Assembly (NCBI GenBank): GCA_043750125.1
Contig: JAYVCD010000156.1
Coordinates: forward strand, 1 to 17,701
Direction of reading: 5' to 3'
Length of the DNA stretch: 17,701 bases
From: Archangiaceae bacterium
GTDB taxonomy: Bacteria > Myxococcota > Myxococcia > Myxococcales > Myxococcaceae
A program made the translations under genes and the position numbers. The notes below the pieces were generated by a model, which worked only from the letters and a program-made list of their open reading frames with translations, was not told the origin of the DNA and did no database searches. Of the stretch, positions 1,788 through 17,701 are shown one piece after another. Position 1 is the first letter of the stretch, and every line of letters begins with the position of its first letter.

Positions 1788-1814
1788 GGCGCGTCATACT
1801 AACCCCAGCCACCT

Positions 1815-2537: not shown

Positions 2538-2620
2538 GGAACATCCTCTTGCGACCATTCGTTTTCGTTCCGGCTCGACGGCCGAGCCCAGCCCCCCTCA
2601 GCCGGTCGGAGGATTAACGC

Positions 2621-3733
2621 GTGGCAATCGCAATCACGGGGTACGGAATCGTCAGCGCTCATGGCCAGGGCCTGCAGTCGCTTGCCGAGGCGCTGCGCAG
2701 TGGAAAGACCGGCGTTCGCCCGGTCACCGAATTTTCCACCGAAGGGCTGTGCAGCAACCTCGCCGCCCAGGTGCCTCTTGCGACCCAAGGCGACCGGGCG
2801 TTGGGTTTGCTGAAGCTCGCCGCGGAAGAAGCGCTGGGCTGGCGCGATTGGGCCCCCTCGAACCGCCGCGCGGTGTTGCTGGGCTCGACCAAGGGCTCAC
2901 TTCCCAGGGTGTTGCTCCAGGGTGAATCGGATCCTTTCGCCCACCTCACCGCCTGGCTTGCCGAGCGCGCGCGAGCCCGCGGGCCGGTGCGCGCAATCGG
3001 AGCGGCCTGCGCCTCGAGCAGTGCCGCCGTCGGCGCCGCGCTGCAGCTGATCGAAGCAGGCCGCTGCGACGAGGCGGTGGTGGCCGGGGTCGAGGCACTG
3101 CACCCGTTCGTGTTTTCGGGTTTTCACGCGCTCAAGGCGATGTCCCCCAGGCCCGCCGCTCCTTTCGACGCGAATCGGCAGGGCTTGTCGATGGGCGAGG
3201 GCGCGGCGGTTCTGGTGCTCGAGAGCGCGGCCAGCGCCGCCGCGGGGTCTCGCAAGCCCCTGGGGTGGATTGAGGGGTTCGGAGCCGCCTCTGACGCTCA
3301 TGACCAGACCGCTCCCCATCCCGAAGGGGTAGGGCTGTTTCGCGCGTGTCAGGCGGCGCTGCAGTCGGCGGGGCTCGAGGTGAAATCAGTCGGCCGGTAC
3401 CACGCCCACGGAACGGCGACGGTGCAGAACGACGCGATGGAAGCCGCGATGTGCTCGCGCTTGTTCGGACCCCAGGGAATTCCGCTCTGCGCGACCAAGG
3501 GGTCCATCGGCCACACCCTGGGCGCCGCCGGCGTGCTCGACCTGCTCGGCTGCCTGGCGTCCTTGAACGCCCGCGAGCTGTGGCCCGTCGTCGGACTGCA
3601 GCAGCTCGACCCCAGGCTTTCCATTTCGCCCGTCACCACCCTTCGCGCCGACCCCCACCCCCGCGCGCTGATTGCCACTGCGGGCTTTGGCGGAATCAAC
3701 GCCGCGCTCGTGGTGCGAAGGAACGAACCATGA
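2621..3733 (+). CDS. Beta-ketoacyl-ACP synthase (FabB/FabF-like KS1) with intact Cys-His-His triad
   Basis: IAITGYG, ACASSS, PFDANRQGLSMGEGAA, HAHGTAT, KGSIGHTLGAAG and AGFGGINAAL motifs; GGAGG upstream of the GTG start. Confidence 0.94.
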   Translation: MAIAITGYGIVSAHGQGLQSLAEALRSGKTGVRPVTEFSTEGLCSNLAAQVPLATQGDRALGLLKLAAEEALGWRDWAPSNRRAVLLGSTKGSLPRVLLQGESDPFAHLTAWLAERARARGPVRAIGAACASSSAAVGAALQLIEAGRCDEAVVAGVEALHPFVFSGFHALKAMSPRPAAPFDANRQGLSMGEGAAVLVLESAASAAAGSRKPLGWIEGFGAASDAHDQTAPHPEGVGLFRACQAALQSAGLEVKSVGRYHAHGTATVQNDAMEAAMCSRLFGPQGIPLCATKGSIGHTLGAAGVLDLLGCLASLNARELWPVVGLQQLDPRLSISPVTTLRADPHPRALIATAGFGGINAALVVRRNEP

Positions 3734-4437
3734 CCGCGGGAATCTCACGTTGGGCTGCCTGGACGGCGAAGGGCGTCACGATCGGCGGAGATCCTTCCGA
3801 CCGCACCGATGGCCCGCTGGCCGCCTGGCCCGAGGCGCCTTTGCTGACCCAGATTCACCCCCGGGCGCGAAGGCCCCACCCTCAAGCCAAAGCGTTGGTG
3901 CAGCTGGCTTCGGTGGTGCTCGGCGATCGCCGAATCGAAGCTCTGGGGCTCACGCTCGGCTCGGCCAGCGGCAGCTCCGGGCCCGATCGCGAGTTCGATC
4001 AGGAATTGAAAGCCAAAGGTCCCGGCTTCGGAAGCCCCTCGCTCTTCGTCTACACCCTGCCCTCGGCTGCCCTGGGGGAAGTCGCTGTCGCGTTCGGCGC
4101 GCACGGTCCGCTCACCACCGTCAGCGCAGGCTCAGCCAGCGCTCTGGCCGCGATCGTGACGGCGATCGATGACGTCGATTCCGGGCGCGCACCGGCGGTG
4201 CTTTGCGGAGGCTTCGAGTGGGGCACCGCGTCGGACTTCATCGCTTTGTTTTTGATCGAACCGACCGGGCCGATCACGCTCACTGGCGACTCCGGCTACG
4301 GAGAGACGCCCGAGGGAACCCGCGGCGACGTGCTCGACCTCGTCGCCGCCGTGGCCAGCGGTCAGCCCTTCACCCTCACCGCAGCCGACCGCCTCGGCTT
4401 CTGGGCCCAGCTTCAGTCCGAGGGAAGCCTCCAATGA
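3730..4437 (+). CDS. Short KS N-terminal-domain protein lacking the catalytic Cys (chain-length-factor-like partner)
   Basis: ATG at 3730 overlaps the KS1 stop (ATGA). FGSPSLFVYTLPSAALGEVAVAFGAHGPLTTVSAGSASALAA aligns to the KS active-site region, with AGSAS in place of TACSS. No His-containing C-terminal domain; 235 aa. Confidence 0.82.
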   Translation: MTAGISRWAAWTAKGVTIGGDPSDRTDGPLAAWPEAPLLTQIHPRARRPHPQAKALVQLASVVLGDRRIEALGLTLGSASGSSGPDREFDQELKAKGPGFGSPSLFVYTLPSAALGEVAVAFGAHGPLTTVSAGSASALAAIVTAIDDVDSGRAPAVLCGGFEWGTASDFIALFLIEPTGPITLTGDSGYGETPEGTRGDVLDLVAAVASGQPFTLTAADRLGFWAQLQSEGSLQ

Positions 4438-5600
4438 AGGGCGTCGCGGTCACCGGAATTGGAATGCTGTCCAACCTCGGCCGGGGCCTCACCGCGCACA
4501 GCGACGGGCTGCGACGCGGTGTCACGGCGCTGACCCCGCTGTCGCTCTTCAAAACCGAAGGTCTCGACGTACGTCCGGTGGGAGAAGTCGCCGACGCGCT
4601 GCTCGACGGGAAGTCGAACTATTCGCGCTGCCAGCGGCTGACATTGTCGGCAGCCAAGGACGCGCTCGGCGGTCATCACCCCACGGGCGAAGGGATCATC
4701 GCCATCGGGTCGACGACCGGTGGCATCTACGAAAGCGAGCAGCACTACCTCAAGCATCGCGGAGAGGAAGGGGTGGCCGATCGCGCGCTGTTGACCAACC
4801 ACCCGGTCGGAACGATTGCAGATCGCCTCTGCCGGGATCTCGGCCTGGGCGGCGAGCGCCACACTTTTGCGACCGCGTGCTCTTCGAGCGCGAACTCGAT
4901 TGGTTACGCTGCGGCGCGCGTCGAAGCCGGAGCTCCCTGGGCGTTGGCGGGTGGCGTCGATTCGCTGTGCCGCCTGACCTGGGCCGGCTTCCACTCGCTG
5001 AAGCTGCTGTCGAGCACCGCGTGTCGCCCTTTCGACCTGCATCGAAACGGGCTGTCGCTGGGCGAAGCGGCGGCGTTTCTTTTCCTCGAGCCGATCGCGG
5101 CCGCGCGCGCCCGGGGAGCGACGATCTTCGGGCTCGTCAGCGGCTGGGGCTGCTCGGCCGACGCGTACCACATGACCGCGCCCCACCCCGAAGGCCTGGG
5201 AGCGATCGCCGCGATGCGGGCTGCGCTGGCCGACGCCGACTGTCAGCCCGGACACATCGACTACGTGAACGCCCACGGCACGGCCACCCCCGCCAACGAC
5301 AAGGCCGAAGGGCTCGCGCTTCGAGCGGTGTTTGGCGCACGCGTGCCGCCGGTGAGCTCGACGAAAGGAGTCACCGGGCACTCGCTGGGAGCCGCCGGCG
5401 CGCTCGAGGCGGCGATCAGCCTGTTGATCATTCGCGACGGCTTTCTTCCGGGAAACGTCGGGCTGAGCCAGGTCGACCCGGCGATTGGCTTCGAGCCCCT
5501 GGGCCCAGCCACCGCATTCGCGACCGTCTCGAAAGTGATTTCCAATTCGTTCGGCTTCGGGGGCAACAACACCGCCCTGGTCTTGGAGCGTGCCCCGTGA
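4434..5600 (+). CDS. Beta-ketoacyl-ACP synthase (FabF/ApeO-like KS2) with intact triad
   Basis: ATG at 4434 (ATGA overlap), beginning MKGVAVTGIG; TACSSS, GLSLGEAAA, DYVNAHGTAT, KGVTGHSLGAAG and SNSFGFGGNN motifs. Confidence 0.95.
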   Translation: MKGVAVTGIGMLSNLGRGLTAHSDGLRRGVTALTPLSLFKTEGLDVRPVGEVADALLDGKSNYSRCQRLTLSAAKDALGGHHPTGEGIIAIGSTTGGIYESEQHYLKHRGEEGVADRALLTNHPVGTIADRLCRDLGLGGERHTFATACSSSANSIGYAAARVEAGAPWALAGGVDSLCRLTWAGFHSLKLLSSTACRPFDLHRNGLSLGEAAAFLFLEPIAAARARGATIFGLVSGWGCSADAYHMTAPHPEGLGAIAAMRAALADADCQPGHIDYVNAHGTATPANDKAEGLALRAVFGARVPPVSSTKGVTGHSLGAAGALEAAISLLIIRDGFLPGNVGLSQVDPAIGFEPLGPATAFATVSKVISNSFGFGGNNTALVLERAP

Positions 5601-6355
5601 CCGCCGTTTCGATTCTCGGGCACGCCGTCCTTTCTCCCCCGCCCGGTGAGACCCGGGTGACCCACATCGGCGACGAGGCTGAGAAGAACGCCCGCCGGCT
5701 GCCCCGGGTCGATCGCATGGCGCTGCACGTCGCACGGTTGGCGCTGGGCAATCACCCGGTCGAAGGGGTGGGCCTGGTGGTTGGCACTGGCTACGGCGGG
5801 CTGCAAGCGACGGTCGACTTTCTCGAGGGCATCGCGGTCCGGGGAGCAGGGTTCGGCAGCCCGACCGCCTTCCATCAGTCGGTGCACCACTCACCTGCGG
5901 GGCAGATCAACCTCGCGTTGAAGATCACCGGCCCCTCGCTCACCTGCACCTCGCGAGAGGTCTCTTCCGAGGCGGCGCTGCGCGAGGGCATCGATCTGCT
6001 GACGATGCGGCGCTGCGAGAAGATGCTGGTCGTCTGTGCGGACGAGGTCGTCCCGGCGCTCGAGTCGGCCTTCAAAGCATTTGGAGCGCGATGGATTCCG
6101 TCCGAGGGCGCCGCGGCGGTGCTGCTCGGGCTCACAGGCTCAGATCTCGAAATCAGCGCGGTGCGGCTGTCGAGCCGATCAGCCTCGATGCTCGAATGGA
6201 CGACGCCTCCTCCGCCGGGCTCCGCGGTGAATCCTGCAGGAGGCTTGATCCGACTGGTCGAGGCGGCGCGCGCGCTCGAGTCCGGAAACAGCATCACTCT
6301 GCAGTCGTTTTCGTTGGGAGGCGGCGAGGCCACCGTCGCTTTGAGGCGCAGGTGA
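5597..6355 (+). CDS. Beta-ketoacyl synthase chain length factor (ApeC-like)
   Basis: GTG at 5597 (GTGA overlap); ARRLPRVDRMAL, VVGTGYG and SPTAFHQSVHHSPAGQINLAL motifs typical of aryl polyene-type CLFs; no catalytic triad. Confidence 0.85.
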   Translation: MTAVSILGHAVLSPPPGETRVTHIGDEAEKNARRLPRVDRMALHVARLALGNHPVEGVGLVVGTGYGGLQATVDFLEGIAVRGAGFGSPTAFHQSVHHSPAGQINLALKITGPSLTCTSREVSSEAALREGIDLLTMRRCEKMLVVCADEVVPALESAFKAFGARWIPSEGAAAVLLGLTGSDLEISAVRLSSRSASMLEWTTPPPPGSAVNPAGGLIRLVEAARALESGNSITLQSFSLGGGEATVALRRR

Positions 6356-7065
6356 TCGAAGCGCTCGCCGGAGCGATCGCCGGCGCGGGCCTGACGGCGA
6401 TGGGCTTGGGAATGTTTCACCCCCGCGTCGCGCTCTTTGGCCCCCAACATTCTCACGGGCCACGTGGGACACCGCAGGTGGCGCTGTCCTTCGATGACGG
6501 GCCGCACCCGGACTTCACTCCGCGAATCGCTGAAGTCCTCGCGAAAGGCGGCGCCCAGGCCACCTTCTTCTGCATCGGTCAGTGTGCCGAACAACACCCG
6601 GAAGTGGCGCGCGCGCTGCTGGCCGCCGGGCACGAATTGGGCAACCACACCTACAGCCACAACACCCGGGGCCACCTGTTTTCGGCGTCCGCGCTCGAAG
6701 CCGACCTGCGGCGCTGTCAAAGCGTGCTCGCGACCCTCGGCACCGCATCGCGCTGGTACCGACCGGCCGTAGGCATTCGCAACCCTCCGGTTCACGCCGC
6801 GGCCAAAGCGTTGGGCCTGCAGGTGGTGATGTGGTCCGCAGCCGCCCGCGATGGAGCCTGGGCCTTCGATCAAGACAAGGCGCTGCGAATGGCGAGGCAA
6901 GCGCAGCCCGGCGACATCCTCGTGCTGCACGACGGGCTGCGGGGCACCTCGAGCACCGTCCGGGAATCGACCGTGCGCTGGCTGCCGAGCTTGCTCGAAG
7001 GGCTGCGCGAGCGTGGGCTTCAGCCGGTGACTGTTTCCCAGCTGCTCAATCCCGCGGCTCCTTAA
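6352..7065 (+). CDS. Polysaccharide deacetylase (NodB/CE4) with hydrophobic N-terminus
   Basis: GTG at 6352 (GTGA overlap); ALSFDDGP, ATFFCIG, HELGNHTYSH, YRPAVG and ILVLHDG motifs. Confidence 0.93.
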   Translation: MIEALAGAIAGAGLTAMGLGMFHPRVALFGPQHSHGPRGTPQVALSFDDGPHPDFTPRIAEVLAKGGAQATFFCIGQCAEQHPEVARALLAAGHELGNHTYSHNTRGHLFSASALEADLRRCQSVLATLGTASRWYRPAVGIRNPPVHAAAKALGLQVVMWSAAARDGAWAFDQDKALRMARQAQPGDILVLHDGLRGTSSTVRESTVRWLPSLLEGLRERGLQPVTVSQLLNPAAP

Positions 7066-7670
7066 GAGGGGCACTGCTCGAGTCGGGCGCGGACTTCAAG
7101 CCATTCCTCGAGGAGGATTGAGTAGATCGCGGTGTCCCGAGGGCCTCCATCGGACGCCAATTGCCAGGCCCGAAGCACGCCGTCCGCCTTCGATCCCAGT
7201 CGCAAGATCGCCGCCCTCGACTTCAGATTGCGCGCGTCGGTCTTCAGGGTGACCCGGTGCACCTTCCAGACTTCGAAGGCATGCCGCAGCATCAGCAGCT
7301 TGGCCTCGGTGTTGATCGCGGTCCGTTGGGCCGACTCGGCCAACCAGGTGCTGCCGATCTCGAGCACGCTGGGAGGGGACTCCCGGGTCGGAGCGGACTC
7401 GAAGTACTTGTGCCAGCGTTCGATGTTCATGAAGCGGGTCGAGCCGACCAGCCGGCCGGTTTGCGCATCGACCGTGGCGAACGGAACTGTCACTCCGCGC
7501 TCGGCATCGGTGCGCGCGAGCTGAATGAACATCCGCATCTCGATCTCATCGCGGGGGATGACGGTGAAGGTGTAGCTCGATCGATTTTCGTTCGCGGCCG
7601 CCAACAGCGCGGTCGAGTGGCCGAGGTCCAGCGGGACGAGTCGTACGTACTTGCCTTCGAGGGTGAGCAC
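7062..7670 (-). CDS. GNAT N-acetyltransferase, RimJ/RimL-like
   Basis: LEGKYVRLVPL, VGSTRF, EIGSTWL, QRTAINTEAKLLMLRHAFE, KTDARNLKSRAAILRLG and RDTAIYSIL motifs. Start placed at GTG 7670, downstream of the preceding gene's stop; the start is uncertain. Confidence 0.9.
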   Translation of the reverse strand: MLTLEGKYVRLVPLDLGHSTALLAAANENRSSYTFTVIPRDEIEMRMFIQLARTDAERGVTVPFATVDAQTGRLVGSTRFMNIERWHKYFESAPTRESPPSVLEIGSTWLAESAQRTAINTEAKLLMLRHAFEVWKVHRVTLKTDARNLKSRAAILRLGSKADGVLRAWQLASDGGPRDTAIYSILLEEWLEVRARLEQCPS

Positions 7671-7699
7671 GCGCGGGAACCTGGTACGTGATGCGGGGC

Positions 7700-7930
7700 T
7701 CAGCCGACGAGCAGATTGGATAAGGCCCAAATCAAAAAAACGAGCACGAAGAGTGTCACCAACGCCGGCTCGACCCACCGAGTCCAGGTCCGCCAGGCGG
7801 TCGCGGCGGGTCGCCTCGATTCATCTGCGTGATTGCGAAAGGCGCGCTCGGCTTGCGGTCGAGCGTCAATCGGAGCCACGACGGGCTTTAGGGTCCCGAG
7901 AAGATCGTCGAGGGGATCAAGGGGGCTCAT
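7700..7930 (-). CDS. 76-aa single-TM protein, putative anti-sigma factor
   Basis: ATG at 7930 overlaps the sigma stop (ATGA); MSPLDPLDDLLGTLKP... with C-terminal TM WVEPALVTLFVLVFLIWALSNLLVG. Function inferred from position only. Confidence 0.7.
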   Translation of the reverse strand: MSPLDPLDDLLGTLKPVVAPIDARPQAERAFRNHADESRRPAATAWRTWTRWVEPALVTLFVLVFLIWALSNLLVG

Positions 7931-8484
7931 GGAGTTTCTCCAGCGGCAAGCGAAGCACGAAGCTGCTCGCGCGCGCGGGAAAGGCGTTGTCGAAAGGCCT
8001 CGGGGTTGACGCCGATGATCCGCGCCGCTTCCGAAGGCTCGAAGTGCTCGACGCAAACCAGCAACAGCGCCTCGCGGTATTTCAGCGGAAGCGCGGCGAG
8101 GGCGCGATCGAGCGTGCGCTGGGCTTGCGACGCCATCGCCACGCTCTCGGGCGTCGAATCTTGCCGGCGGTCTTTGAACCACACCGCCGCTTCGGCGAGG
8201 CGCGAGCCGTCGACGAGGCTCCAGCGCCGGTGGGAAAGAAACAGGTTGCGGGCGACGGTGAAGAGCCAGGCGGTCAGGTGGGTGTCATCGTGAAGCCAGG
8301 CTGCTTCGGCGGCGAGGCGAAGCCAGGTTTCCTGACACAGCTCGGCGGCGATCTCGCGGCGGCGGGTCAGACGCCAGAGGAAGGAAAACAAGCGCGGGTG
8401 ATGGGATCGATAGACGGCATCGAACGCGCCCGAGTCGCCGGCTTTGAGGCGGGTGACGAGACTCGAGGGGGCAGGAACGTCCAC
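7927..8484 (-). CDS. ECF-family RNA polymerase sigma-70 factor
   Basis: Region 2 (GDSGAFDAVY...AAELCQETWLR...AWLFTVARN) and region 4 (ALAALPLKYREALLL...EAARIIGV...RQRLSRAREQL); 185 aa with no C-terminal extension. Confidence 0.94.
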   Translation of the reverse strand: MDVPAPSSLVTRLKAGDSGAFDAVYRSHHPRLFSFLWRLTRRREIAAELCQETWLRLAAEAAWLHDDTHLTAWLFTVARNLFLSHRRWSLVDGSRLAEAAVWFKDRRQDSTPESVAMASQAQRTLDRALAALPLKYREALLLVCVEHFEPSEAARIIGVNPEAFRQRLSRAREQLRASLAAGETP

Positions 8485-8495
8485 TGGGGAGCATC

Positions 8496-8522
8496 AACTC
8501 CGCAGCCGAGCGGGCGTGACAA
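8496..8522 (-). promoter_or_regulatory. Candidate ECF promoter (autoregulatory) TTGTCACG-N14-GAGTT
   Basis: Minus strand reads TTGTCACG (8522-8515), 14 nt, GAGTT (8500-8496), ending 11 nt before the sigma GTG. Confidence 0.7.
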
Positions 8523-8533
8523 CAGATCTTTCA

Positions 8534-8560
8534 TTGTCACGTTGATTTCGCACGCGAGTT
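8534..8560 (+). promoter_or_regulatory. Candidate ECF promoter TTGTCACG-N14-GAGTT for the 8585 gene
   Basis: TTGTCACG at 8534-8541, 14 nt, GAGTT at 8556-8560, followed by SD AAGGAG at 8570-8575 and ATG at 8585. Confidence 0.72.
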
Positions 8561-8584
8561 TCAAGACCTAAGGAGTCACACTCA

Positions 8585-8953
8585 ATGCTCGAATTCTTCC
8601 TGGCCGGTGGCGTGCCCATGCTCGGAGTCGTGGTCTGCGGCCTGGGGGCGTTGATCGCGGCGGTGCGGTTTGCCCTCTCACCGGACCCGCGAAAAGTCAT
8701 GGCGATCGTGAGCCTCAGCGTGGCGGCGCTCGTCTCCAGCGTCCTGGGTTCTGCGGCCGACCTGACCGTGGTCTTCCGAACAATCGGCAAGATGCCCGAG
8801 TGGCAGAAGCCCGAAGTCCTGCCGTTGATCCTGATTCAAGGCGCAAGCGAGTCGCTGTCCCCCGTAATTCTGGGCCTCACCCTGCTGACCGTGATCTGGT
8901 TGGTGATGGCGGTCGGCTATCGGCGACTGGCTCCCCGCCTTCCTATGGTGTGA
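8585..8953 (+). CDS. Small 3-TM membrane protein resembling a minimal MotA/TolQ/ExbB fold
   Basis: Strong SD. FFLAGGVPM at the N-terminus, SVLGSAADLTVVF and QGASESLSPVILGL resemble ExbB/TolQ TM1-TM3 motifs by eye. Confidence 0.7.
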   Translation: MLEFFLAGGVPMLGVVVCGLGALIAAVRFALSPDPRKVMAIVSLSVAALVSSVLGSAADLTVVFRTIGKMPEWQKPEVLPLILIQGASESLSPVILGLTLLTVIWLVMAVGYRRLAPRLPMV

Positions 8954-9002
8954 GCGCGCTTGCGAAGGCGGGTGCGTTCAACTACGAGTCCCGCCGTCGC
9001 TC

Positions 9003-9076
9003 GCGCGATTAGCTCAGCTGGATAGAGCGTCGGCCTCCGAAGCCGAAGGCCAGTGGTTCGAATCCACTATCGCGCA
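9003..9076 (+). tRNA. tRNA-Arg, anticodon CCG; CCA not encoded
   Basis: Acceptor stem GCGCGAT/ATCGCGC, D arm GCTCAGCTGGATAGAGC, anticodon arm TCGGC-CTCCGAA-GCCGA, T arm AGTGG-TTCGAAT-CCACT, discriminator A at 9076. Confidence 0.97.
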
Positions 9077-9083
9077 TGGGTTC

Positions 9084-9127
9084 AAGGGCCGGAGTTCGTT
9101 GGGATTCTCCACCGGGTTCCGGCCCTT
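9084..9127 (+). terminator. Post-tRNA stem-loop (terminator or att-associated hairpin)
   Basis: AAGGGCCGGA (9084-9093) is the perfect reverse complement of TCCGGCCCTT (9118-9127), extendable with G-U pairs; the U tract is weak. Confidence 0.55.
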
Positions 9128-9234
9128 CGCTTGTCCGGTTTCGGGTGTCGGGGACGGATTTGGGACACTTCCAACGGCCGCGCGAGCCTTTTCGACTACC
9201 AGAAGCACCGCGGGCTTCGGCGGCTCGCCCTCTC

Positions 9235-9703
9235 TGCCAACGTGAGTGAGACAGCGACCCCGGTTGAATTTACTGTGCAGGGCGATGGGGTTTTCTCGCA
9301 TGTGTCGGTCGAGCAACGTTCAGTCGTGTCGTAGTCATCGTGCAGTTGTCGGGTGCCCCGCCGGAGCGAAGCGGAGGCGGCCTGTAGGAGGCGGAGCTTG
9401 GCTGAAGGTGGAAGCTGCGACGGGTGGGGGACGATGATGGAGCCCGCACTGTTTGTGGCGCAGGAGACCGTGGTCGTGGCCAAGGCGAAGCGGCGGAAGT
9501 TCTCCGCCAAGGAGAAGCTGCGGATCCTCGACGAGGCAGATGCCTGCGCGAAGACCGGCCAGCAGGGCGCGCTACTGCGGCGTGAGGGGCTGTACTCCTC
9601 GCACCTATCGGAATGGCGGCGGGCACGGGAACGTGGCGAGTTGGATGCGCTGACGCCGAAGAAGCGCGGTCGCAAGGCCCTTGCGCCCAACCCGCTGGAG
9701 AAG
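9235..9703 (+). mobile_element. IS3-family remnant: candidate left end plus truncated orfA (9434 to ~9703); no orfB
   Basis: AKAKRRKFSAKEKLRILDEADAC...GALLRREGLYSSHLSEWRRARERGELDALTPKKRGRK is a recognisable IS3 OrfA HTH, and similarity stops after NPLEK. TGCCAACGTGAGTGAGACAG at 9235 is a tentative inverted-repeat end. Confidence 0.8.
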
Positions 9704-9818
9704 GGTAAATCCTCGCCCGTCCCCGTCCCCGCCAATTCACCGCGAGATCAGCAGCGCGTGAACGCCGGTTACTGCAGCGCCCGCGGCGGCCTGCTGAGCG
9801 GCGAACTGGTGCGGCAGG

Positions 9819-10286
9819 ATGAAATCCACCCTGTCGCGCAGCTTCGAGAGCACCGCAGCCCGGACGTACGCCACCACCGCTGTCGAACACGTGAGGACGT
9901 TGGCTGAGGCACTGGTCTCCGGTGATGCCAACGGTGCTCGATTGCGAACTGTGGCCCGCGCTCTGGCGTCCGCTCGTACTCAGATTTGCCTGGTCGACGC
10001 CGCCGTTGGTCAGGCGATGGGACGCCGAGACCTCGAGACGATGGCGGCGCTGGTGAAGCTCGGCGACCAGCTGACCCGGCGCCTCGGCATTCTGCTGGAT
10101 CAGCACCGGCGTGAACTTGGGCACGACAGGTCGCGCGGTGTACTGGTGATCGGTGCAGCTCAGGACGGCAACGGCGGTGCGGCTCACGCGGGCCAGCTTC
10201 CCGCCGACCGATGTTTCGCTGATACGAATGAAATCGCCGACCTCGTTCGGTGGGCAACGGGTCTTCCTCAAATGCCCACGCACTGA
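9819..10286 (+). CDS. Hypothetical helical protein, possibly a degraded mobile-element gene
   Basis: The first ~110 aa (AVEHVRTLAEALV...LTRRLGILLDQHRRE) look protein-like. No clear SD, and the C-terminal part overlaps the next ORF. Confidence 0.35.
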   Translation: MKSTLSRSFESTAARTYATTAVEHVRTLAEALVSGDANGARLRTVARALASARTQICLVDAAVGQAMGRRDLETMAALVKLGDQLTRRLGILLDQHRRELGHDRSRGVLVIGAAQDGNGGAAHAGQLPADRCFADTNEIADLVRWATGLPQMPTH

Positions 10287-10461
10287 CTGCGGTCAGTTGG
10301 TGAACGTGATCGGGTTCGAGCCGCTCGCCGGCTTCGGCTGCAAACGGTGCCTGAAGTGGCGTCTGCGACCAGCCTGTCGGGCGTCGGCGTTGGTGAAGGA
10401 AGCGCAGGAAGCCGAAAGCCCCGCGACAGATCCGCCACGACAGCTCAGAGCTAACCTGTGA
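10153..10461 (+). pseudogene. Zn-ribbon ORF fragment of a type seen in integrative elements/prophages
   Basis: PTSFGGQRVFLKCPRTDCGQ...GFGCKRCL has an FGGxR-x4-CP...C...FxCxxC pattern; start uncertain. Confidence 0.45.
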
Positions 10462-10763
10462 ACCTCGCCTGACATGCCATTGATCAGGACAAGCACTTCT
10501 GGTGAACGAACGTGGATTTCAGCGGCCCGCATTACTGAGGAAAGCGCGGTCAGTATTTCCCCCCAGCGCTGAAAATGGCTCTCCCCGAGCGCCCACACCG
10601 GGGGTAGAGCCCGCCGCACTGAACTGATTGCCTAAGAGGCGTGGCCCAGCTCTCCGAAGAGCAGCGTTCAGTGTTCGGGCTGCAGGATCTTCTGAGGGTC
10701 AGTGGTCCGTGCGGGCGGCGGCACGTCGCTGACAGACGTTCGCTCGACGTTTTCGAAGAAAAG

Positions 10764-11381
10764 TCACAGCAGCCTGAATGCGACGCCCACGGAGAGGTTG
10801 AGCCACATCGTGTCCATGATTGCCGGGCGCGGGTTGCCATCGCGAAAGCCAATCGTGTTGCCGTCGAGCAGCAGCGACCCGACGTCGAGCCGCGCGAACC
10901 CGTCGAAAGTGTCGGTGAGCTGAACCGTCGCCATCCCGTGCCCGCGCGCTGCTGGAACCAGTTGAAACGCCCAGTCGGGCATGAACGGCGCAGCCGAGAA
11001 TTCGGCGATGTCGGAGTAGCCGGAGGAGGTCGCGAGGCCGACGCCCGCTCCGAGATCGAATCGCACTCGGCCCGCCGGAATGACAAACGCCACCGTCGGC
11101 ATCAGCCACCAACGATCGTGAACGATGGGCGATGCGGTGATGAGTCCCCACCCGAGATCGAAGCCGAGCGCGGCGTGCCTGCCCAGCCCCAGTCGCACGC
11201 CGGCGCTGACGGCCGAACCGCTTGCTCCGGGGCTGCCGAGGTAACCCAGTCCAAGGAAGACGCCGAGCTTCTGCGGGCCCGGATCGACCGGAGTAAGCTC
11301 GACAGGCTCAGTGAGCTGAAGCTCGGCGGCGCCGGCGACGGTGGAGGCGAGGACGGCGATGATCAGAAAGAACTTCTTCAT
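10764..11381 (-). CDS. Secreted protein, putative small outer-membrane beta-barrel (paralog B)
   Basis: SD AAGGAG, then ATG at 11381; signal peptide MKKFFLIIAVLASTVAGA; alternating Gly/aromatic beta-strands; ends NLSVGVAFRLL; 205 aa. Confidence 0.8.
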   Translation of the reverse strand: MKKFFLIIAVLASTVAGAAELQLTEPVELTPVDPGPQKLGVFLGLGYLGSPGASGSAVSAGVRLGLGRHAALGFDLGWGLITASPIVHDRWWLMPTVAFVIPAGRVRFDLGAGVGLATSSGYSDIAEFSAAPFMPDWAFQLVPAARGHGMATVQLTDTFDGFARLDVGSLLLDGNTIGFRDGNPRPAIMDTMWLNLSVGVAFRLL

Positions 11382-11451
11382 TTGGGGCTCCTTGAATCGG
11401 TTGAAGGGAAAGGGACGGCCTTGAACGACATCGTTCGAAGCGTTCGACTGG

Positions 11452-12033
11452 TCAGAGCAACCGGAACTGGCCGCCGAGCGAGAGGTTGATCCACATCGTG
11501 TCGGGGTTGCGGAGCGGCCCATCGCCGGTGCGCCAGCCGAGCGCGTTGCCCTCCAACAGCTGCGACGAGACGTCCACGCGCGCGAACAGCTCGAACCTTG
11601 GAGTGAGCGTGAACGCAGCCACCGCATGTCCGCGAACGGTCGGCACGCCTTGTGAGGCCCAGAGCGTACGATCGGCAGCCATGTCGTCCCAGGTGCTGAA
11701 GCCCGACGAGGTGCCGAGGCCAAGGCCCACTCCTAAATCGAGACGCACGACCTGCGTCGGGACGACTACCGCCACAGCCGGCATCAGCCACCACCGATCC
11801 TGCTTGCTGCTGAGCACCCCGTAGCCAGCGTCGAAGCTGAGCGCGAGGTGCTTGCCCATCCCGTATCGCAGCCCACCGATGACGTTGGCGCCGTCGCCGC
11901 CAGGACTCCCCTGGTAGCCAAGCCCAACGAAGGCGTGCAGTGGTCTTTGCTCGTGCTCGAGCAGCACAGGCGCGGCGGCGCCGAGCGTTGGGGTAACCAG
12001 CGTGAGGAAGGCGGCGATCAGACTTCGGGGCAT
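11452..12033 (-). CDS. Secreted protein, putative small outer-membrane beta-barrel (paralog A)
   Basis: SD GGAG; signal-like N-terminus; collinear similarity to 10764-11381; ends NLSLGGQFRLL. Confidence 0.8.
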   Translation of the reverse strand: MPRSLIAAFLTLVTPTLGAAAPVLLEHEQRPLHAFVGLGYQGSPGGDGANVIGGLRYGMGKHLALSFDAGYGVLSSKQDRWWLMPAVAVVVPTQVVRLDLGVGLGLGTSSGFSTWDDMAADRTLWASQGVPTVRGHAVAAFTLTPRFELFARVDVSSQLLEGNALGWRTGDGPLRNPDTMWINLSLGGQFRLL

Positions 12034-12099
12034 CGGGTTCTCCGGGGTGAGGTCCCGACAAGATGCACGGTCCGGCCCGATCCGATCCCTTCGATGCTC

Positions 12100-12167
12100 C
12101 GGATGGGCGGTTTGATGCGATGAGCGTCACCGACCGCGACGAGCGGAAGGGTGCGCGCGATGAACGG
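12100..12167 (-). promoter_or_regulatory. LytTR-type direct-repeat array upstream of the barrel genes
   Basis: Minus-strand boxes CCGTTCATCGC (from 12167), CCGCTCGTCGC (12146), ACGCTCATCGC (12127) and CCGCCCATCCG (12110); periods 21, 19 and 17. Confidence 0.75.
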
Positions 12168-12252
12168 TTCGCGCGGATTCGGAGCCCGTCTGCGGGTGTG
12201 TTACGAGAGCCGAAGGTTCTCAACTCGCTGTAGAGGCAAGATCTACCTACCT

Positions 12253-13311
12253 ATGACCCCGCGTGAGCCTTTCCTCGCCCGTGGGGCGCTGTTCGCACTG
12301 ACTGTCACGCCGCCGCTGATCACCCTGGTGACGCTGCCGCTCGGTTCGAGCCCACCTTCGCTGATGCACGCGGCTGGCTGCCTGCTTGCGACGAGTCTTT
12401 GCACCGTGCTCATCGGTGGTTTGATGCACGCAGCGGTCAACTGGAGCGCACCCAGGTTGCTCGTGATTGTGCGCCCCCCGTGGCTCGCCCACTTGGCGAT
12501 TGCCGTGGTCGCTGCATCGTCGGTGGTGACCGGGTTGCTAATTCTGCTGCCGTGGATCGGAGCGCTCGGACACGCGGTCGACGAGAACCTGATCACCTTC
12601 GTCCTCTATGGCTCGGTCGGAATCGCGACCCTCTACCTCGTTGGAGCGAGGGCAGCGGCGATCGTCGCGGCGCGCTCCCGCGCTCAGTCCGACCGGGCGC
12701 TCGCGAGTGCTGAAGACGCACTGCGGAATCGACTCGCGGCGCTCCAGGCGCAGATGAACCCGCACTTTCTTTTCAATACGCTCAACGCGGTTGCGAGCCT
12801 CGTACACAAACAGCCGGACCTTGCCGAGGCGACGATCGAGCGTCTGTCGGGCGTGCTGCAATACGCGATCTCCTCTGGACAGCGCGGCTCGGTTCGCTTG
12901 GGGGACGAACTGGACGCAGTGCGCGACTACCTGGGCATCGAGCAAGCGCGGTTTGGGGCGCGGTTGCGCTCCACGATCGAAGTGAGCCCCGACCTTCTCG
13001 AGACAGTGCTGCCTCCGATGTTGTTGCAGCCGCTGGTCGAGAACGCGGTGCTGCACGGGCTGGGGAGCCGCGAGCAGGGCGGGGAGATCAAGATCACCGG
13101 CCGCGCCGAGGGCAACGCGATCGTCCTCACGGTATCGGATGACGGCGTCGGGCCGGGCGGTTCGACTCGCAAAGGAAATCGCACCGGGTTGAGCAGCGTG
13201 CGCGAGCGAATCGCTCTGACGTTCGGCGACGCGGGGGCATTCTTGACGCGAGCGCGGGTCGGCGGCGGCTTCGAGTGCGAGGTGCGGGTTCCGAGGACTG
13301 CGCAGGCGTGA
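12253..13311 (+). CDS. LytS/YehU-family membrane sensor histidine kinase
   Basis: About 4 N-terminal TMs; LQAQMNPHFLFNTLN, YLGIEQARFG, LQPLVENAVLHG, VSDDGVG and TGLSSVRERI motifs. Start at ATG 12253 is tentative. Confidence 0.93.
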   Translation: MTPREPFLARGALFALTVTPPLITLVTLPLGSSPPSLMHAAGCLLATSLCTVLIGGLMHAAVNWSAPRLLVIVRPPWLAHLAIAVVAASSVVTGLLILLPWIGALGHAVDENLITFVLYGSVGIATLYLVGARAAAIVAARSRAQSDRALASAEDALRNRLAALQAQMNPHFLFNTLNAVASLVHKQPDLAEATIERLSGVLQYAISSGQRGSVRLGDELDAVRDYLGIEQARFGARLRSTIEVSPDLLETVLPPMLLQPLVENAVLHGLGSREQGGEIKITGRAEGNAIVLTVSDDGVGPGGSTRKGNRTGLSSVRERIALTFGDAGAFLTRARVGGGFECEVRVPRTAQA

Positions 13312-14009
13312 AGATCCTGGTCGTCGACGATGAGCAACTGGCGCGCGCGCGGCTGATCCGAATGCTTGCGCGCGTCGTGGACGCGGTCGTGGTGGGCGAG
13401 GCCCAGAACGGCAATGACGCGCTCGAGCAAATCACGAAGCTCATGCCGGACGTCGTACTGCTCGACGTTGAGATGCCGGGCTTCGATGGGCTCGCGCTGG
13501 CAGAGAAGCCGGGAATGCCTCCGATCATCTTCACGACGGCGCACGTGCAGTTCGCGGCCGCTGCGTTCGATCTCGACGCGGTCGACTATTTGATCAAGCC
13601 GCTGCGGCAAGACCGACTCGAGCGCGCGCTGGAACGTGTGCATCGGCGGACTGCGGCGGCGAAGCCGGCACCCTCAGCGAGCCACCAGCTGATCGTGCAC
13701 GAGAGTGGGACGGCGCGTTTCATTGATGCCCGGAAGGTGAGCGCGTTTCGTGCGACCGACAAGTACACCGAGTTCACGCTCGACGGCGAAGCGCTGCTGC
13801 TGCGCGAGAGCCTGGACGCGCTCGAGAAGCGACTGTCAGAGCTGGGCTTCTTTCGCGTTCACCGCTCCGGGCTGGTGCGGCTGGATGCGGTCGTCGCGCT
13901 CGAGAACAACAACGCGACGCTGGTGGTGAGGATGAGCGACGGAGCGCTGGTCGAGGTGAGCCGCCGCCAGGCGGTCGAACTGCGGCGACTGCTGGGCCTG
14001 CGGAAGTAA
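13308..14009 (+). CDS. LytR/AlgR-family response regulator (REC + LytTR)
   Basis: GTG at 13308 (GTGA overlap); ILVVDDE, LLDVEMPG, IIFTTAH and DYLIKP in the receiver domain; LytTR domain FFRVHRSGLV...VEVSRR. Confidence 0.95.
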   Translation: MKILVVDDEQLARARLIRMLARVVDAVVVGEAQNGNDALEQITKLMPDVVLLDVEMPGFDGLALAEKPGMPPIIFTTAHVQFAAAAFDLDAVDYLIKPLRQDRLERALERVHRRTAAAKPAPSASHQLIVHESGTARFIDARKVSAFRATDKYTEFTLDGEALLLRESLDALEKRLSELGFFRVHRSGLVRLDAVVALENNNATLVVRMSDGALVEVSRRQAVELRRLLGLRK

Positions 14010-14049
14010 GGGTTTCGGGGGCTCGTTCCCAGGCGGATGATCACTTCAC

Positions 14050-14364
14050 TCAAGCTGTCCCGTCCACGGGTCGACGAGTAAAATCAACATTCAGCATGAG
14101 CCCCATCGCAGCAGCGATCTTCTGCAGGAGGTCGAGCTTGGGCGTGACCTGACCGCTTTCGAGCCTGGCAATCGCCGATTGTGTGGTGTGAGCACGGACT
14201 GCCAGCTGTGCTTGGGTGAGGTTCTGACCCTCACGAAGTTTGCGAATGCGGCGGGCAAGCTGGCGCTTGTCCCATTCAGCGGCGAACTCCGGATCCTTCG
14301 CCCGCTGCTCCTTTACGTATTCATCAAGCGACCTGCCAATATGAGGATTTCTCTTCCTAGCCAT
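14050..14364 (-). CDS. XRE-family HTH protein, HigA-like antitoxin
   Basis: SD AAGGAGG, ATG at 14364; DPEFAAEW, IRKLREGQNLTQAQLA...QSAIARLESG...LLQKIAAAMG. Confidence 0.9.
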   Translation of the reverse strand: MARKRNPHIGRSLDEYVKEQRAKDPEFAAEWDKRQLARRIRKLREGQNLTQAQLAVRAHTTQSAIARLESGQVTPKLDLLQKIAAAMGLMLNVDFTRRPVDGTA

Positions 14365-14677
14365 TTGCAACCTCCTTCATCCGCGCCCGCGCGACCTCGA
14401 TCTCCGACCGTGGCGCCTTTTGTCCCTGCTTCTTGTAGGCGTGAAGCAGGATCATCACCGGCCCCTTGATGGTCACGTAGAACACCCGATGTCGCGAGGC
14501 CTTGATCTCCCAAAGCTTTCCTTCGATTTGTCGCGTGACCAGGCCCGCTTCGAAGCCGTGTTGTCGAATTTCGTCGAGGACGTCCAATAGAAGGGCTCGC
14601 TCATTCGCCTCCAAGGCCTCAAGGTATTTCTCCACGGGGCTGTTCCCAGCGGCGGTGGTGTAGAAGCGAACATCCAC
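14357..14677 (-). CDS. RelE/ParE-superfamily toxin (HigB/Gp49-like)
   Basis: VRFYTTAAGNSPVEKYL, GKLWEIK, RVFY and ILLHAYKKQGQKAPRSEIEVARARM motifs; lies upstream of and overlaps the HTH gene. Confidence 0.9.
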   Translation of the reverse strand: MDVRFYTTAAGNSPVEKYLEALEANERALLLDVLDEIRQHGFEAGLVTRQIEGKLWEIKASRHRVFYVTIKGPVMILLHAYKKQGQKAPRSEIEVARARMKEVANG

Positions 14678-14683
14678 CTGCGC

Positions 14684-14712
14684 AACATAGCGGTGACGCT
14701 ATAGAAGCACAA
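14684..14712 (-). promoter_or_regulatory. Candidate sigma70 promoter of the TA operon with an overlapping palindromic operator
   Basis: TTGTGC (14712-14707), 17 nt, TATGTT (14689-14684); palindrome ATAGCG-N4-CGCTAT at 14687-14702. Confidence 0.6.
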
Positions 14713-14820
14713 CCTCGAGTTCCCTCCGCTCGCAGCGGCATGGGACCTTGTGCTGCCGGGATGACTCCGTCGCGTCCGCGCGACAGTGTCACACAGGGGG
14801 CGACCGTCGAATCACGCCCG

Positions 14821-14893
14821 CCGCTCGTCGCATTGACCACACCGCTCATCGCGTAGCGGTCCCGCCCCTCGCACCGAAGTATGCGTTCGTCAC
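14821..14893 (+). promoter_or_regulatory. LytTR-type direct-repeat array upstream of the desaturase operon
   Basis: CCGCTCGTCGC (14821), CCGCTCATCGC (14842), CCGCCCCTCGC (14862) and GCGTTCGTCAC (14883); periods 21, 20 and 21. Confidence 0.8.
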
Positions 14894-14977
14894 GTTCCAT
14901 TGCGCCCAGGCGCGGACGCATGGCCTACTCCGCCCGAAAGAGGCAACAGGCACGCACGCCGTGACCCAAGGAAACCG

Positions 14978-15973
14978 ATGACCCACGTGCATAGATTCGA
15001 AACCACCCATACCGGCGAGCCCCACGCACGACGTCGGCGGGGGATCCTCGCGAAGCACCCAGAAATCCGGACTCTGATGGGCCACGATTCGAAGACCGCG
15101 TGGATCACGGTCGGGGTTGTCGCGGCTCAGCTCGTGCTGGCCTGGCTCGTTGGGCGACTGGCAAGCGCAGACAGTTGGTTGGCAAGCGGGTGGGTTATTC
15201 TTCCCCTCTCCTACCTTGTCGGCGCGGTGCTGACGCACTGGCTCGCGATGACCATCCACGAGACCACGCACAATCTCGCGTTCCGCACGCGGGCGGCCAA
15301 CATCGCCTTGTCGCTGGTCGCCAACGTTTCGATGGTGTTCCCCTGCGCGATTACTTTCCGTCGCTATCACCTCCATCACCACACCCACCTGGGCGTCGCC
15401 GGGGAAGACACGGACCTTCCGCACCGCGCGGAGGTCGCCTGGATCGGCACCTCCACCGCCCGCAAGCTTTTCTGGCTCGCGATCTATCCGTTCGTCTACA
15501 TCGGCCGCGGCCTCACGTTCGCCGGGCGGATCAGTCGAGGCGAAGTGCTCAACTGGGCGCTGATCATTCCCATCGACGTCGCGATCTACCACTGGCTCGG
15601 CCCCCCGGCGCTCGTGTACCTCGCGCTGAGCATGTTCTTTGCCCACGGCCTGCACCCGGTGGCCGCCCACTTTGTCCACGAGCACTACGTCTTCTCGCGC
15701 GGACAGGAAACCTTCTCCTATTACGGCCCGTTGAATCGGGTCACCTTCAACGTGGGCTTCCACAACGAGCACCACGACTTCATGAACATCCCCGGCCGTC
15801 GGCTTCCCGAGCTGCGGCGAATGGCCAGCGAGTCGTACAGTTCGCTCACTTCGCACCGCTCGTGGACGAAGGTGCTGTGGCTGTTCATCACCGATCGCGG
15901 CATCGGGCCGGCCAGCCGCATCGTGCGAAGCCCCGAAGACTTTCATCGTGGGGCCGCGGACGGCGCAGCATGA
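14978..15973 (+). CDS. Sphingolipid Delta4-desaturase/C4-hydroxylase (DES1/DEGS)-like membrane desaturase
   Basis: SD AAGGA, ATG at 14978; N-terminal EPHARRRRGILAKHPEI; His boxes HETTH, HLHHH and HNEHH; GLHPVAAHFVHEHY and QETFSYYGPLNRVTFNVGFHNEHHDF motifs. Confidence 0.92.
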   Translation: MTHVHRFETTHTGEPHARRRRGILAKHPEIRTLMGHDSKTAWITVGVVAAQLVLAWLVGRLASADSWLASGWVILPLSYLVGAVLTHWLAMTIHETTHNLAFRTRAANIALSLVANVSMVFPCAITFRRYHLHHHTHLGVAGEDTDLPHRAEVAWIGTSTARKLFWLAIYPFVYIGRGLTFAGRISRGEVLNWALIIPIDVAIYHWLGPPALVYLALSMFFAHGLHPVAAHFVHEHYVFSRGQETFSYYGPLNRVTFNVGFHNEHHDFMNIPGRRLPELRRMASESYSSLTSHRSWTKVLWLFITDRGIGPASRIVRSPEDFHRGAADGAA

Positions 15974-17701
15974 CTGGCGACGCCGTCATGGGATTCCCGC
16001 TGACCGATCCCGGCCACGTCAGGGTCGAGTCTCCATCGCTGCGTCAACGAGTCCTGGCACGGTTGATTCGCGACGAGCGCGATCTGCCGCTGGTGAGCCT
16101 GCTGTCGCTGCTCCTCGCGCTGTTCCCGCCCTGTGCGCTCTATCTCCTTTCTCAGCCGCGAATTGATTGGTTCGTCGCAGGTCCGTACCTCTTGTTGAAC
16201 CTGCTCGTGTTCGTCGGTCCGTACACGATGATGGTCCACAACATCTGCCACCGCGTTGTCTTCCGACCACGGTACCAGGCGTTCAGTCGCTTCGTCGCAT
16301 TCTGGATATTGGCTCCGATCTTCGGCCAATCCCCCGAGACCTATTATTGCCACCACGTGGGGACGCACCACCCCGAGAACAACCTCGTCGACGACGTCAG
16401 CTCCACGCTTCGCTACCAGCGCGACAGCCTCTGGGATTTCTCGAGATACCTTGCTCGCTTCACCCTGCTCGCCTTCTACGACCTCGCCGGCTATTTCTGG
16501 AGAAGGGGAAAGCGGCGCCTCTGGATTCGCACCGTGGTCGGCGAAGCGGCCTACTACCTCCTGGTGGGCGCGGCGCTGCTGCTCAACTGGCGGGGAGCGC
16601 TGATCGTATTCGTGATCCCGTGGGTCTTCGTCCGCCTGGCGCTGATGGCCGGGAATTGGGCTCAACACGCATTCATCGACTTGGCCGCGCCAGCGAACAG
16701 CTATCGCAACAGCATCACGTGCATCAACAGTCGCTACAACCGGGTCTGCTTCAACGACGGCTACCACGCAGGGCATCACCTGCGAACCGGCCTTCATTGG
16801 ACGGAGATGCCGGACAATTTCCTGAAAAACCTCCACAGCTACCGAAGCGAGGGCGCCGTGGTCTTCCGGGGGATCGACTACCTCGGAGTCTGGCTGGCGC
16901 TGATGCTCAAGCAATACGGATGGCTGGCCGAGCGATACGTGGATCTCAGCGAGCGCCCACTGAGCAAGGCAGAAATCATCGCGCTCCTTCGGTCGCGCAC
17001 CCGCAAGCGCACCGTCGATCCGCTGGTCGAGGCAAGTCGACCGCTCGGCGGCTGGGAGCGGATGACCGCGATCATGCACCAGGAGTTCCACGGCACCGGG
17101 ATCCTCGTCGGCTGTGCGCGACTGGAGGGCCTCGTCGAACGCGAGTCGCTCTGCCGAGCCTGGGCCGCAATGGTCGCACTGCATCCGGCGCTGCGGGCGC
17201 GCATCGCCTGGGCTAACGGAGAGCCACGCATCGAATCGCTCGCAGCGAACGCGTCGGCACTCCCGGTTGCATTTCCCCAGGGGGCGGACTGGCAACTGCT
17301 CATGGAGGAGGAGATGAGCCGCCCGTTCGATTCGGCGCGAGGGCCGCTGTGGCGCGTGCACTGTGTGAACGGAGCCGGGACGAGCGACATCGTGGTCGCG
17401 CTCCACCATACGATCGCCGATGGGCTCAGCCTCACCCGCCTGCTCGACGACTTGCTCACCCAGCTTTCACCTGGAGAGCTGGCGCCTGTGGGTTACGGCG
17501 CTCTTCAACCCGCGATCGAGAGTTCCCATGGGTCGAAGCCGAACCTTGTCCTCTACGGCGCGGGCTTTCTCAGCCGAGCGCTGATGCGCCTCGTCAAGCG
17601 ACAGCCGCGCGTCACCTTCTCCGGCTACGCACCGTTTCCGGATCGGCGAACCCGCCACCTGTTTTTCGAGCTTGCGGCCAATGAGACTGATGCGCTCGTG
17701 C
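15970..17701 (+). CDS. Fatty-acid desaturase-family domain fused to a condensation/PapA5-like acyltransferase domain; 3' end beyond the window
   Basis: Manual translation from ATG 15970 (ATGA overlap), open to the window end. HNICH at 16237-16251, HHVGTHH at 16351-16371, GNWAQH, and FNDGYHAGHH with HAGHH at 16765-16779. Then RPLGGWERM, HPALRARI, PFDSARGPLWRV and HHTIADG at 17404-17424. Confidence 0.88.
   Translation, partial: MTGDAVMGFPLTDPGHVRVESPSLRQRVLARLIRDERDLPLVSLLSLLLALFPPCALYLLSQPRIDWFVAGPYLLLNLLVFVGPYTMMVHNICHRVVFRPRYQAFSRFVAFWILAPIFGQSPETYYCHHVGTHHPENNLVDDVSSTLRYQRDSLWDFSRYLARFTLLAFYDLAGYFWRRGKRRLWIRTVVGEAAYYLLVGAALLLNWRGALIVFVIPWVFVRLALMAGNWAQHAFIDLAAPANSYRNSITCINSRYNRVCFNDGYHAGHHLRTGLHWTEMPDNFLKNLHSYRSEGAVVFRGIDYLGVWLALMLKQYGWLAERYVDLSERPLSKAEIIALLRSRTRKRTVDPLVEASRPLGGWERMTAIMHQEFHGTGILVGCARLEGLVERESLCRAWAAMVALHPALRARIAWANGEPRIESLAANASALPVAFPQGADWQLLMEEEMSRPFDSARGPLWRVHCVNGAGTSDIVVALHHTIADGLSLTRLLDDLLTQLSPGELAPVGYGALQPAIESSHGSKPNLVLYGAGFLSRALMRLVKRQPRVTFSGYAPFPDRRTRHLFFELAANETDALV

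Follow-up and report, generated by a model that had tools for sequence, protein, structure and literature searches.

A candidate AlgZ/AlgR-type regulon with tandem 11-bp boxes before outer-membrane barrel and desaturase genes in a myxobacterium

Introduction

The operators of LytTR regulators follow, as a rule, a direct-repeat period of 21 base pairs (bp), according to the passages of PMC6193735 and PMC4064291 that deal with them. In the same passages, the operators of AgrA, VirR, PlnC/D and HdrR/BrsR are imperfect 21-bp direct repeats located just upstream of the -35 element. For the AlgZ-type four-helix sensor, the signal is stated to be unknown in the relevant part of PMC4064291. In this study, we analyzed a 17,701-nucleotide (nt) stretch of an Archangiaceae bacterium (assembly GCA_043750125.1, contig JAYVCD010000156.1, positions 1 to 17,701; hereafter the window), in which a sensor kinase and a LytTR response regulator are encoded between two arrays of 11-bp boxes, one facing genes of outer-membrane barrels and the other facing a desaturase operon. 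From comparative sequence evidence, we estimate a probability of roughly 55% that this is an AlgZ/AlgR-type module controlling the barrels and the desaturase operon for envelope and lipid remodelling. In the open-access literature, neither the operator nor the barrel family was found described, nor was a connection with a DEGS-like desaturase; the putative regulon is new and its mechanism is of a familiar kind.

Results

The central features of the locus are as follows.

12253 to 13311, plus strand: AlgZ/LytS-type sensor kinase of 352 residues, with four membrane helices at the N terminus, His_kinase (PF06580) and HATPase_c
13308 to 14009, plus strand: response regulator of 233 residues, with a receiver (Asp53) and a LytTR domain
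12100 to 12167, minus strand: left putative operator array, facing the barrels; boxes at 12157-12167, 12136-12146, 12117-12127 and 12100-12110 (offsets 0, 21, 40 and a doubtful 57)
14821 to 14893, plus strand: right putative operator array, facing the desaturase operon; boxes starting at 14821, 14842, 14862 and 14883 (offsets 0, 21, 41 and 62)

The kinase and regulator genes overlap by 4 bp, and the Pfam assignments (a PF06580 kinase with HATPase_c beside a receiver-LytTR regulator) identify them as a LytS/LytTR two-component system. The H-box histidine of the kinase (H171) was invariant in 24 of 24 aligned kinases, and Asp53 is present in the regulator. The four N-terminal helices are joined by short loops, and the Pfam scan of the kinase detected neither a 5TM-5TMR_LYT nor a GAF domain. 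The best NCBIfam matches of the regulator were BtsR (130.5 bits) and LytR (113.1 bits), both under their cut-offs (246 and 375), so the regulator is assigned to neither equivalog family. A PDB sequence search with the regulator matched only receiver domains, and only distant kinases were found in viral contigs and plasmids.

The window arrays were described by the consensus CCGYTCRTCGC. The left boxes deviate from it by 0, 0, 1 and 3 mismatches, with spacings of 21, 19 and 17 bp, and the right boxes by 0, 0, 2 and 2 mismatches, with spacings of 21, 20 and 21 bp. All four perfect matches in the window are inside the two arrays. The preliminary description of this DNA had reported one identical 11-mer common to both arrays and a 21-bp period at the start of each; both statements held. 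It had also counted four boxes per array, which was correct for the right array but not for the left one. The left box 4 (12100) is out of register, at a spacing of 17 bp (the fourth box of other arrays is at +62), and shows further decay in a 95%-identical relative of the same genus (G003). The left array is therefore better described as three boxes and a doubtful one.

Next, the chance expectation of such arrays was examined in the host assembly (G000; 6.17 Mb, 89% complete). Eighty perfect single boxes were found, and only two pairs of perfect boxes occurred at spacings of 11 to 60 bp, namely the window arrays, each at 21 bp. Chance alone would give 0.0005 such pairs at a spacing of exactly 21 bp, or 0.026 over all spacings from 11 to 60 bp, and six of six dinucleotide-shuffled genomes contained none. 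The consensus had been derived from the window arrays themselves, which makes a genome count with it circular. A noncircular matrix was trained on five loci from other organisms only. In a genome-wide scan, this matrix ranked the right array first (47.2) and the left array second (42.5), compared with a best score of 31.9 over 10 control spacings, and arrays of this kind are not common by chance. Lower-ranked sites were found on contigs C340 (37.0), C158 (35.5), C19 (30.2) and C326 (29.4); the C19 site sits within a long open, coding frame and was discarded as an array. The arrays were not among the top families of a generic repeat finder. In 208 genomes of the family, the exact-pair pattern gave 25 matches in 18 genomes; beyond known modules, nearly all were coincidences in coding sequence, and one was located at a sister-clade LytTR locus. 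The two arrays are genuine and very probably did not arise by chance.

To relate the boxes to the regulator, we compared LytTR loci by clade. The window kinase and the window regulator are the only PF06580 and LytTR genes, respectively, in the host assembly. A strict box pair was present at 4 of 7 loci of the regulator's own clade, 15 of 29 loci of the sister clade and none of 13 more distant loci, where kin are not independent and the pair of G002 was counted from its other contig. Both the own and the sister clade carry DKY/EKY and VSRR-type motifs, whereas the 13 distant loci have different recognition motifs. The boxes mostly end in G in the sister clade and in C in the own clade. In one relative (G004), both the kinase and the array are gone, and no box pair was found genome-wide. 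The arrays are imperfect direct repeats with the 21-bp period of tandem operators; in 8 of 11 arrays of this kind, the third box lies at +41 or +42 and the fourth at +62 or +63. A CAnnnT hexamer follows at +102 to +104 from box 1 in 6 of 11 arrays (null expectation, 5%), including the left one:

12060 to 12065, minus strand: candidate weak -10 hexamer (CAnnnT), at +102 relative to the first box of the left array

In the sister clade, TAnnnT was present 27 to 33 nt past the pair in 14 of 20 hand-picked sites (null expectation, 0.5%). A scan with the sigma-70 consensus returned no promoters. The idea that these GC-rich repeats arose by chance, or that a different protein binds them, would fit the degenerate fourth boxes and the exact pairs of a looser pattern inside coding sequence elsewhere (most of the 25 matches in the 208 genomes). 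It is nevertheless very improbable, given two observed pairs against the chance expectation above, the two top ranks with the out-of-genome matrix, the constant distance from the arrays to the candidate -10 and the start codon, and the presence of arrays tracking the regulator clade. The boxes are thus very likely operators of the neighbouring LytTR regulator, as judged by comparison, although this assignment stays putative.

The left array faces two barrel genes.

11452 to 12033, minus strand: outer-membrane barrel 1, 193 residues, predicted eight-stranded barrel of the NspA/OmpA/OmpW type, with no Pfam or NCBIfam match
10764 to 11381, minus strand: outer-membrane barrel 2, 205 residues, with a signal peptide, 50% identical to barrel 1 and with no Pfam match

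The structural model of barrel 1 (predicted local distance difference test score, 81.9) matched NspA with a Z score of 18.0 and a root-mean-square deviation of 2.4 Å over 146 aligned residues, followed by a Legionella porin (18.0), OmpA (16.8), OmpW (15.8) and AlkL (9.7). A signal peptide and an eight-strand barrel are predicted. The barrel family comprises only 73 clusters at 50% identity and has an invariant DRW motif. An array precedes the barrel in G002, G003, G365, L096 and L097, and the third-ranked array of the host genome (C340) precedes an internally deleted, frameshifted third barrel copy. In every visible copy of the module, the barrel is adjacent or within the same gene run. A single-barrel scan of genome contigs returned only the contig of G003, and class-level searches found nothing around G164 (20 genomes, barrel alignment) or G065 (2 genomes, kinase alignment). 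In G365 (C14, about position 220,700; L234:2021-2665, minus strand), a further four-box array precedes a gene with an outer-membrane-type C terminus, whose 5' end may be frameshifted and which had no profile match to the barrel family. In G004 (L032, L084), one barrel is deleted together with the kinase and the array, and a 5'-clipped regulator lies directly beside the other barrel.

The right array faces the desaturase operon.

14978 to 15973, plus strand: DEGS/DES1-like membrane desaturase of 331 residues (Lipid_DES and FA_desaturase), with three His boxes
15970 to 17701, plus strand: second desaturase with an acyltransferase domain of the PapA5/condensation type fused in frame, running off the contig; its C terminus is probably at the start of contig C326

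The first desaturase scored 49.9 bits with Lipid_DES (cut-off, 23) and, with its three His boxes, is DEGS/DES1-like by sequence. A PDB sequence search with the desaturase returned nothing. The desaturase-acyltransferase junction was assembled without a stop codon in runs X2 and X3, both from one study. Of 401 Myxococcota genomes, 83 contained DEGS-like homologues; among the homologues examined, boxes were almost always absent. Among 34 DEGS-like loci, a box pair preceded three, in the window, in the metagenome cassette L079 and at a paralogue on C326 (0, 3 and 3 mismatches), and the other 31 had at least 6 mismatches. The three boxed genes form one clade (support, 97/93) in a tree of 32 rows from which two short ones were omitted. 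L079 comes from a different organism, and its kinase and desaturase are 64% and 58% identical to those of the window. Its gene order is kinase, regulator, array, desaturase, flavin adenine dinucleotide (FAD) oxidoreductase, lipoprotein-like gene and barrel. Because L079 holds the whole module in one run, both flanking gene sets in the window probably share the regulator. The nearest Atlas clusters of the L079 oxidoreductase are labelled Delta24-sterol reductase, which serves as a lead only; on C326, the boxed desaturase is likewise followed by a broken Delta24-sterol-reductase-like oxidoreductase. The second desaturase had homologues in 83 other genomes of the 401, and no match among those listed reached the acyltransferase part; the 24 homologues examined end near residue 350 and have no boxes. 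An in-frame query for the acyltransferase had no match in any other module locus examined. A third DEGS-like gene of the host (G000:C460:5370-5950) breaks off midway and has no boxes, and its frame extends upstream like homologues of about 550 to 570 residues.

The preliminary description had proposed that one regulator co-activates both flanks. This proposal gains comparative support, since the regulator is the sole LytTR protein, the boxes track its clade, and they recur before barrel and DEGS-like genes elsewhere. Co-activation of the barrel and desaturase flanks is accordingly a likely, predicted outcome, held with less confidence than the assignment of the boxes.

The sister LytS/LytTR clade is widespread in Myxococcaceae (L114-L140, L036-L038 and L151). 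Its CCGYTCRTCGG pairs precede the kinase gene, a position consistent with putative autoregulation, and small membrane-anchored genes after the regulator. In this clade, TAnnnT lies about 29 nt after the pair, and the start codon is often just 5 to 12 nt further, which makes these genes near-leaderless. The sister clade makes the operator testable in relatives of the uncultured host.

In addition to the module genes, the following features define its setting.

14050 to 14677, minus strand: type II toxin-antitoxin pair, with a Gp49/RelE-like toxin (14357-14677) and a helix-turn-helix antitoxin (14050-14370)
9003 to 9076, plus strand: tRNA-Arg(CCG), left anchor of the island

The preliminary description had rightly placed the sensor and regulator between the arrays but had missed the toxin-antitoxin pair there. 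This pair has 58% GC, compared with 64 to 66% around it, and is, by composition, a low-GC insertion between the regulator and the right array; in L079, the array directly follows the regulator stop codon, without an intervening pair. The tRNA was the only hit of the Rfam scan, and no integrase was seen in the window. A 53-bp, att-like copy of the 3' part of the tRNA (9030-9082) is present at C326:314-366, and the first 141 bases of C326 gave the best match to a PapA5-like C terminus among 1,439 contig-end peptides (E value, 2e-5). C326 therefore probably continues the window contig and closes an island of about 10 kb, which would place the second boxed desaturase and the broken oxidoreductase about 1.5 kb beyond the island end. 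In G003, the module is beside the same tRNA and is 95% identical, whereas the flanking genes are 76% identical, which suggests recent transfer of the module.

Decayed copies in the host comprise the C340 barrel, the C326 oxidoreductase, the C158 array without a target and a kinase fragment on C11; from the remnants on C340, C158 and C11, gain and decay seem to have occurred repeatedly. The strong four-box array on C158 (G000:C158:6012; L233) has no intact target and is followed by an internally deleted remnant of a LysR substrate-binding domain. Elsewhere in the window, open reading frame remnants without a Pfam match occupy 9353-10412, with an 83% copy of 9878-10412 on C239; they resemble insertion-sequence debris. 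A divergent sigma-factor-like gene (minus strand) and a gene for a small membrane protein (plus strand) are located at 7927-8953, both with counterparts in G003 and neither with a Pfam or NCBIfam match at an E value of 0.001. An acyltransferase gene, four ketoacyl-synthase-type genes and a polysaccharide deacetylase gene at 1815-7065, which together resemble a cluster of the aryl-polyene or fatty-acid kind, are partly conserved in G003 and lie outside the island.

Discussion

The best explanation of these data is a small mobile module of the AlgZ/AlgR type that would switch on genes for envelope and membrane-lipid remodelling. By family knowledge, the four-helix kinase would phosphorylate the LytTR regulator, which would bind the tandem 11-bp boxes in the register 0/21/41/62, probably as two dimers. 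By comparison between loci, the arrays stop some 30 bp short of a weak candidate -10, and the bound regulator would activate transcription. The steady targets would be eight-stranded outer-membrane barrels. An optional second target would be an operon that starts with a DEGS-like desaturase of one clade and continues with a further lipid enzyme, which would be the second desaturase-acyltransferase in the window and a Delta24-sterol-reductase-like oxidoreductase in L079 and on C326. The input would most likely be a change in the inner membrane or a hydrophobic compound within it, and the output would be changes in lipid saturation and outer-membrane protein content. Membrane remodelling as the service of the module is an even bet.

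Several observations weigh against this account. The right array has no CAnnnT or TAnnnT at the expected place. A box pair lies directly upstream in only 5 of 40 barrel matches, a set that includes near-duplicates and three matches with a short upstream stretch or none. In three of the six further genomes that carry the barrel, a similar kinase was absent at an E value of 1e-35, and a same-size contig was common to the barrel and such a kinase for 6 of 15 close barrels and for none of 20 further ones. Other genes follow the regulator in G002, G004, G365 and L072, where the desaturase is missing at the locus, and the DEGS-like query had no match in the genomes of G002 or G365. In favour of the desaturase link, among 18 related kinases on contigs of at least 10 kb, three share the exact contig size and source with a desaturase (50,470, 96,151 and 121,636 bp), matches that indicate the same contig at most and not adjacency or boxes; these three desaturases fall within the same 34-of-118 clade (support, 88; FastTree). 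The boxed desaturase on C326 was dropped as a distant target in trans, since the probable continuation of the contig makes it a neighbour. Given the decayed copies, the module may be weakly selected in the host. The preliminary description had proposed to check the co-occurrence of barrel, LytS/LytTR and DEGS homologues across genomes; the barrel is present in all visible modules, but most barrels lack boxes and the desaturase is missing from several modules.

A rival explanation is that the operators are real but belong to a promiscuous local switch, which at first carried the barrel and acquired the desaturase operon behind a surplus array, the two flanks being unconnected in physiology. In the sister clade, a near-identical box serves autoregulation as well as unrelated small proteins of the membrane or secreted type, the additional four-box array of G365 precedes a different outer-membrane-type gene, the genes after the desaturase vary between cassettes, and the module resides in a tRNA-anchored island with far higher identity to G003 than its flanks. 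However, the boxed and kinase-linked desaturases all belong to one clade spanning 58 to 61% identity, which suggests that the link is of long standing and not the product of recent capture, and the link persists through different gene orders. We consider such a switch a doubtful explanation, albeit the strongest competitor of controlled remodelling.

The nature of the signal and of the lipid was also considered. The preliminary description had taken the all-transmembrane design of the sensor as a hint at a lipid signal. This argument is not supported, because AlgZ of Pseudomonas aeruginosa is described in PMC4064291, in the part on its input region, with the same four-helix input of about 150 residues; the design thus does not single out lipids. 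The further proposal of lipid uptake by the barrels, with prey as the origin, found no support, and 35 of the 40 barrel matches have no box pair directly upstream. Of the proposed desaturation and acyl transfer, the desaturase is missing beside the regulator in four loci and the acyltransferase from every other module locus examined. Some eight-stranded barrels, such as OmpW and AlkL, pass hydrophobic molecules. A circuit in which an external sphingoid base, ceramide, fatty acid or sterol, perhaps derived from prey, is detected by the kinase, taken up through the barrels and converted by the desaturases, reductase and acyltransferase would agree with the presence of both these proteins among the fold matches, with the boxed operons of two organisms starting with a DEGS-like desaturase followed by enzymes akin to those of sphingolipids and sterols, and with barrel and desaturase in one gene run in L079. 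It is unlikely, since the fold is nearer to NspA, OmpA and the Legionella porin than to OmpW or AlkL and does not reveal a function, the sensor has a generic four-helix design, and most barrels were found without lipid enzymes.

A prey lipid may also be unnecessary. Among the 12 of 19 host PF00155 matches inspected, there was no obvious stand-alone serine palmitoyltransferase. In contig C452 of the host (L231:1086-7802, minus strand), a polyketide synthase of 2,238 residues (KS-AT-KR-DH) ends in a class II aminotransferase domain, and this predicted enzyme might supply sphingoid bases. Membrane remodelling is therefore favoured over uptake of prey lipids, because the AlgZ-like sensor is generic and the host might make sphingoid bases itself. 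A more specific version, in which a mobile two-component system senses eukaryote-type lipids within the membrane, such as sphingoid bases, ceramides or sterols, and induces a dedicated outer-membrane channel together with DEGS-like and DHCR24-like remodelling enzymes, is slightly less likely still than import of an external lipid. If true, it would constitute a bacterial sensor-uptake-remodelling circuit for eukaryote-type lipids and would assign a class of ligands to an AlgZ-type four-helix sensor for the first time. The locus offers a compact reporter system for studying the stimuli of AlgZ-type four-helix sensors and the substrates of bacterial DEGS-like and DHCR24-like enzymes.

Finally, we compared the module with known systems. 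E. coli BtsS/BtsR (YehU/YehT) and Staphylococcus aureus LytS/LytR share the PF06580 kinase and supply the best NCBIfam matches of the regulator. The HdrRM-type LytTR Regulatory System combines a receiver-less regulator with a membrane inhibitor and has no kinase, and the window module, with a receiver and a kinase, does not belong to it. The systems of AgrA, VirR, PlnC/D and HdrR/BrsR are mostly two-box, belong to Firmicutes and are driven by peptides or membrane inhibitors, whereas the window has a phosphorelay pair, up to four boxes and predicted lipid-enzyme targets. The FhRhHRS motif of LytTR, as given in the corresponding part of PMC4227749, reads FFRVHRS in the window regulator. The barrels have the fold of NspA, the OmpA transmembrane domain, OmpW and PagL, but only 8 to 17% identity in the top eight fold matches. 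The desaturase resembles DEGS1/DES1 in the Lipid_DES N-terminal motif and the three His boxes, but belongs to a bacterial clade, may act either as a desaturase or as a C4-hydroxylase, and has no solved relative. The closest likeness is to P. aeruginosa AlgZ(FimS)/AlgR as portrayed in the pertinent sections of PMC4064291, with about 150 N-terminal kinase residues in four helices, an N box and a receiver-LytTR regulator; the H box reads NPHFLFNTL in the window kinase and RPHFLFNSL in AlgZ, and the core of the window box matches the AlgR site CCGTTCGTC. Several database homologues of the window kinase bear the automatic label AlgZ. The window kinase retains a DDGVG box, which is said to be missing in AlgZ, and the likeness rests on published descriptions rather than on phylogeny. 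AlgR is presented in those sections as a global regulator with scattered, not necessarily tandem, sites, whereas the window regulator is associated with phased arrays, of four boxes at most, upstream of a small number of local genes.

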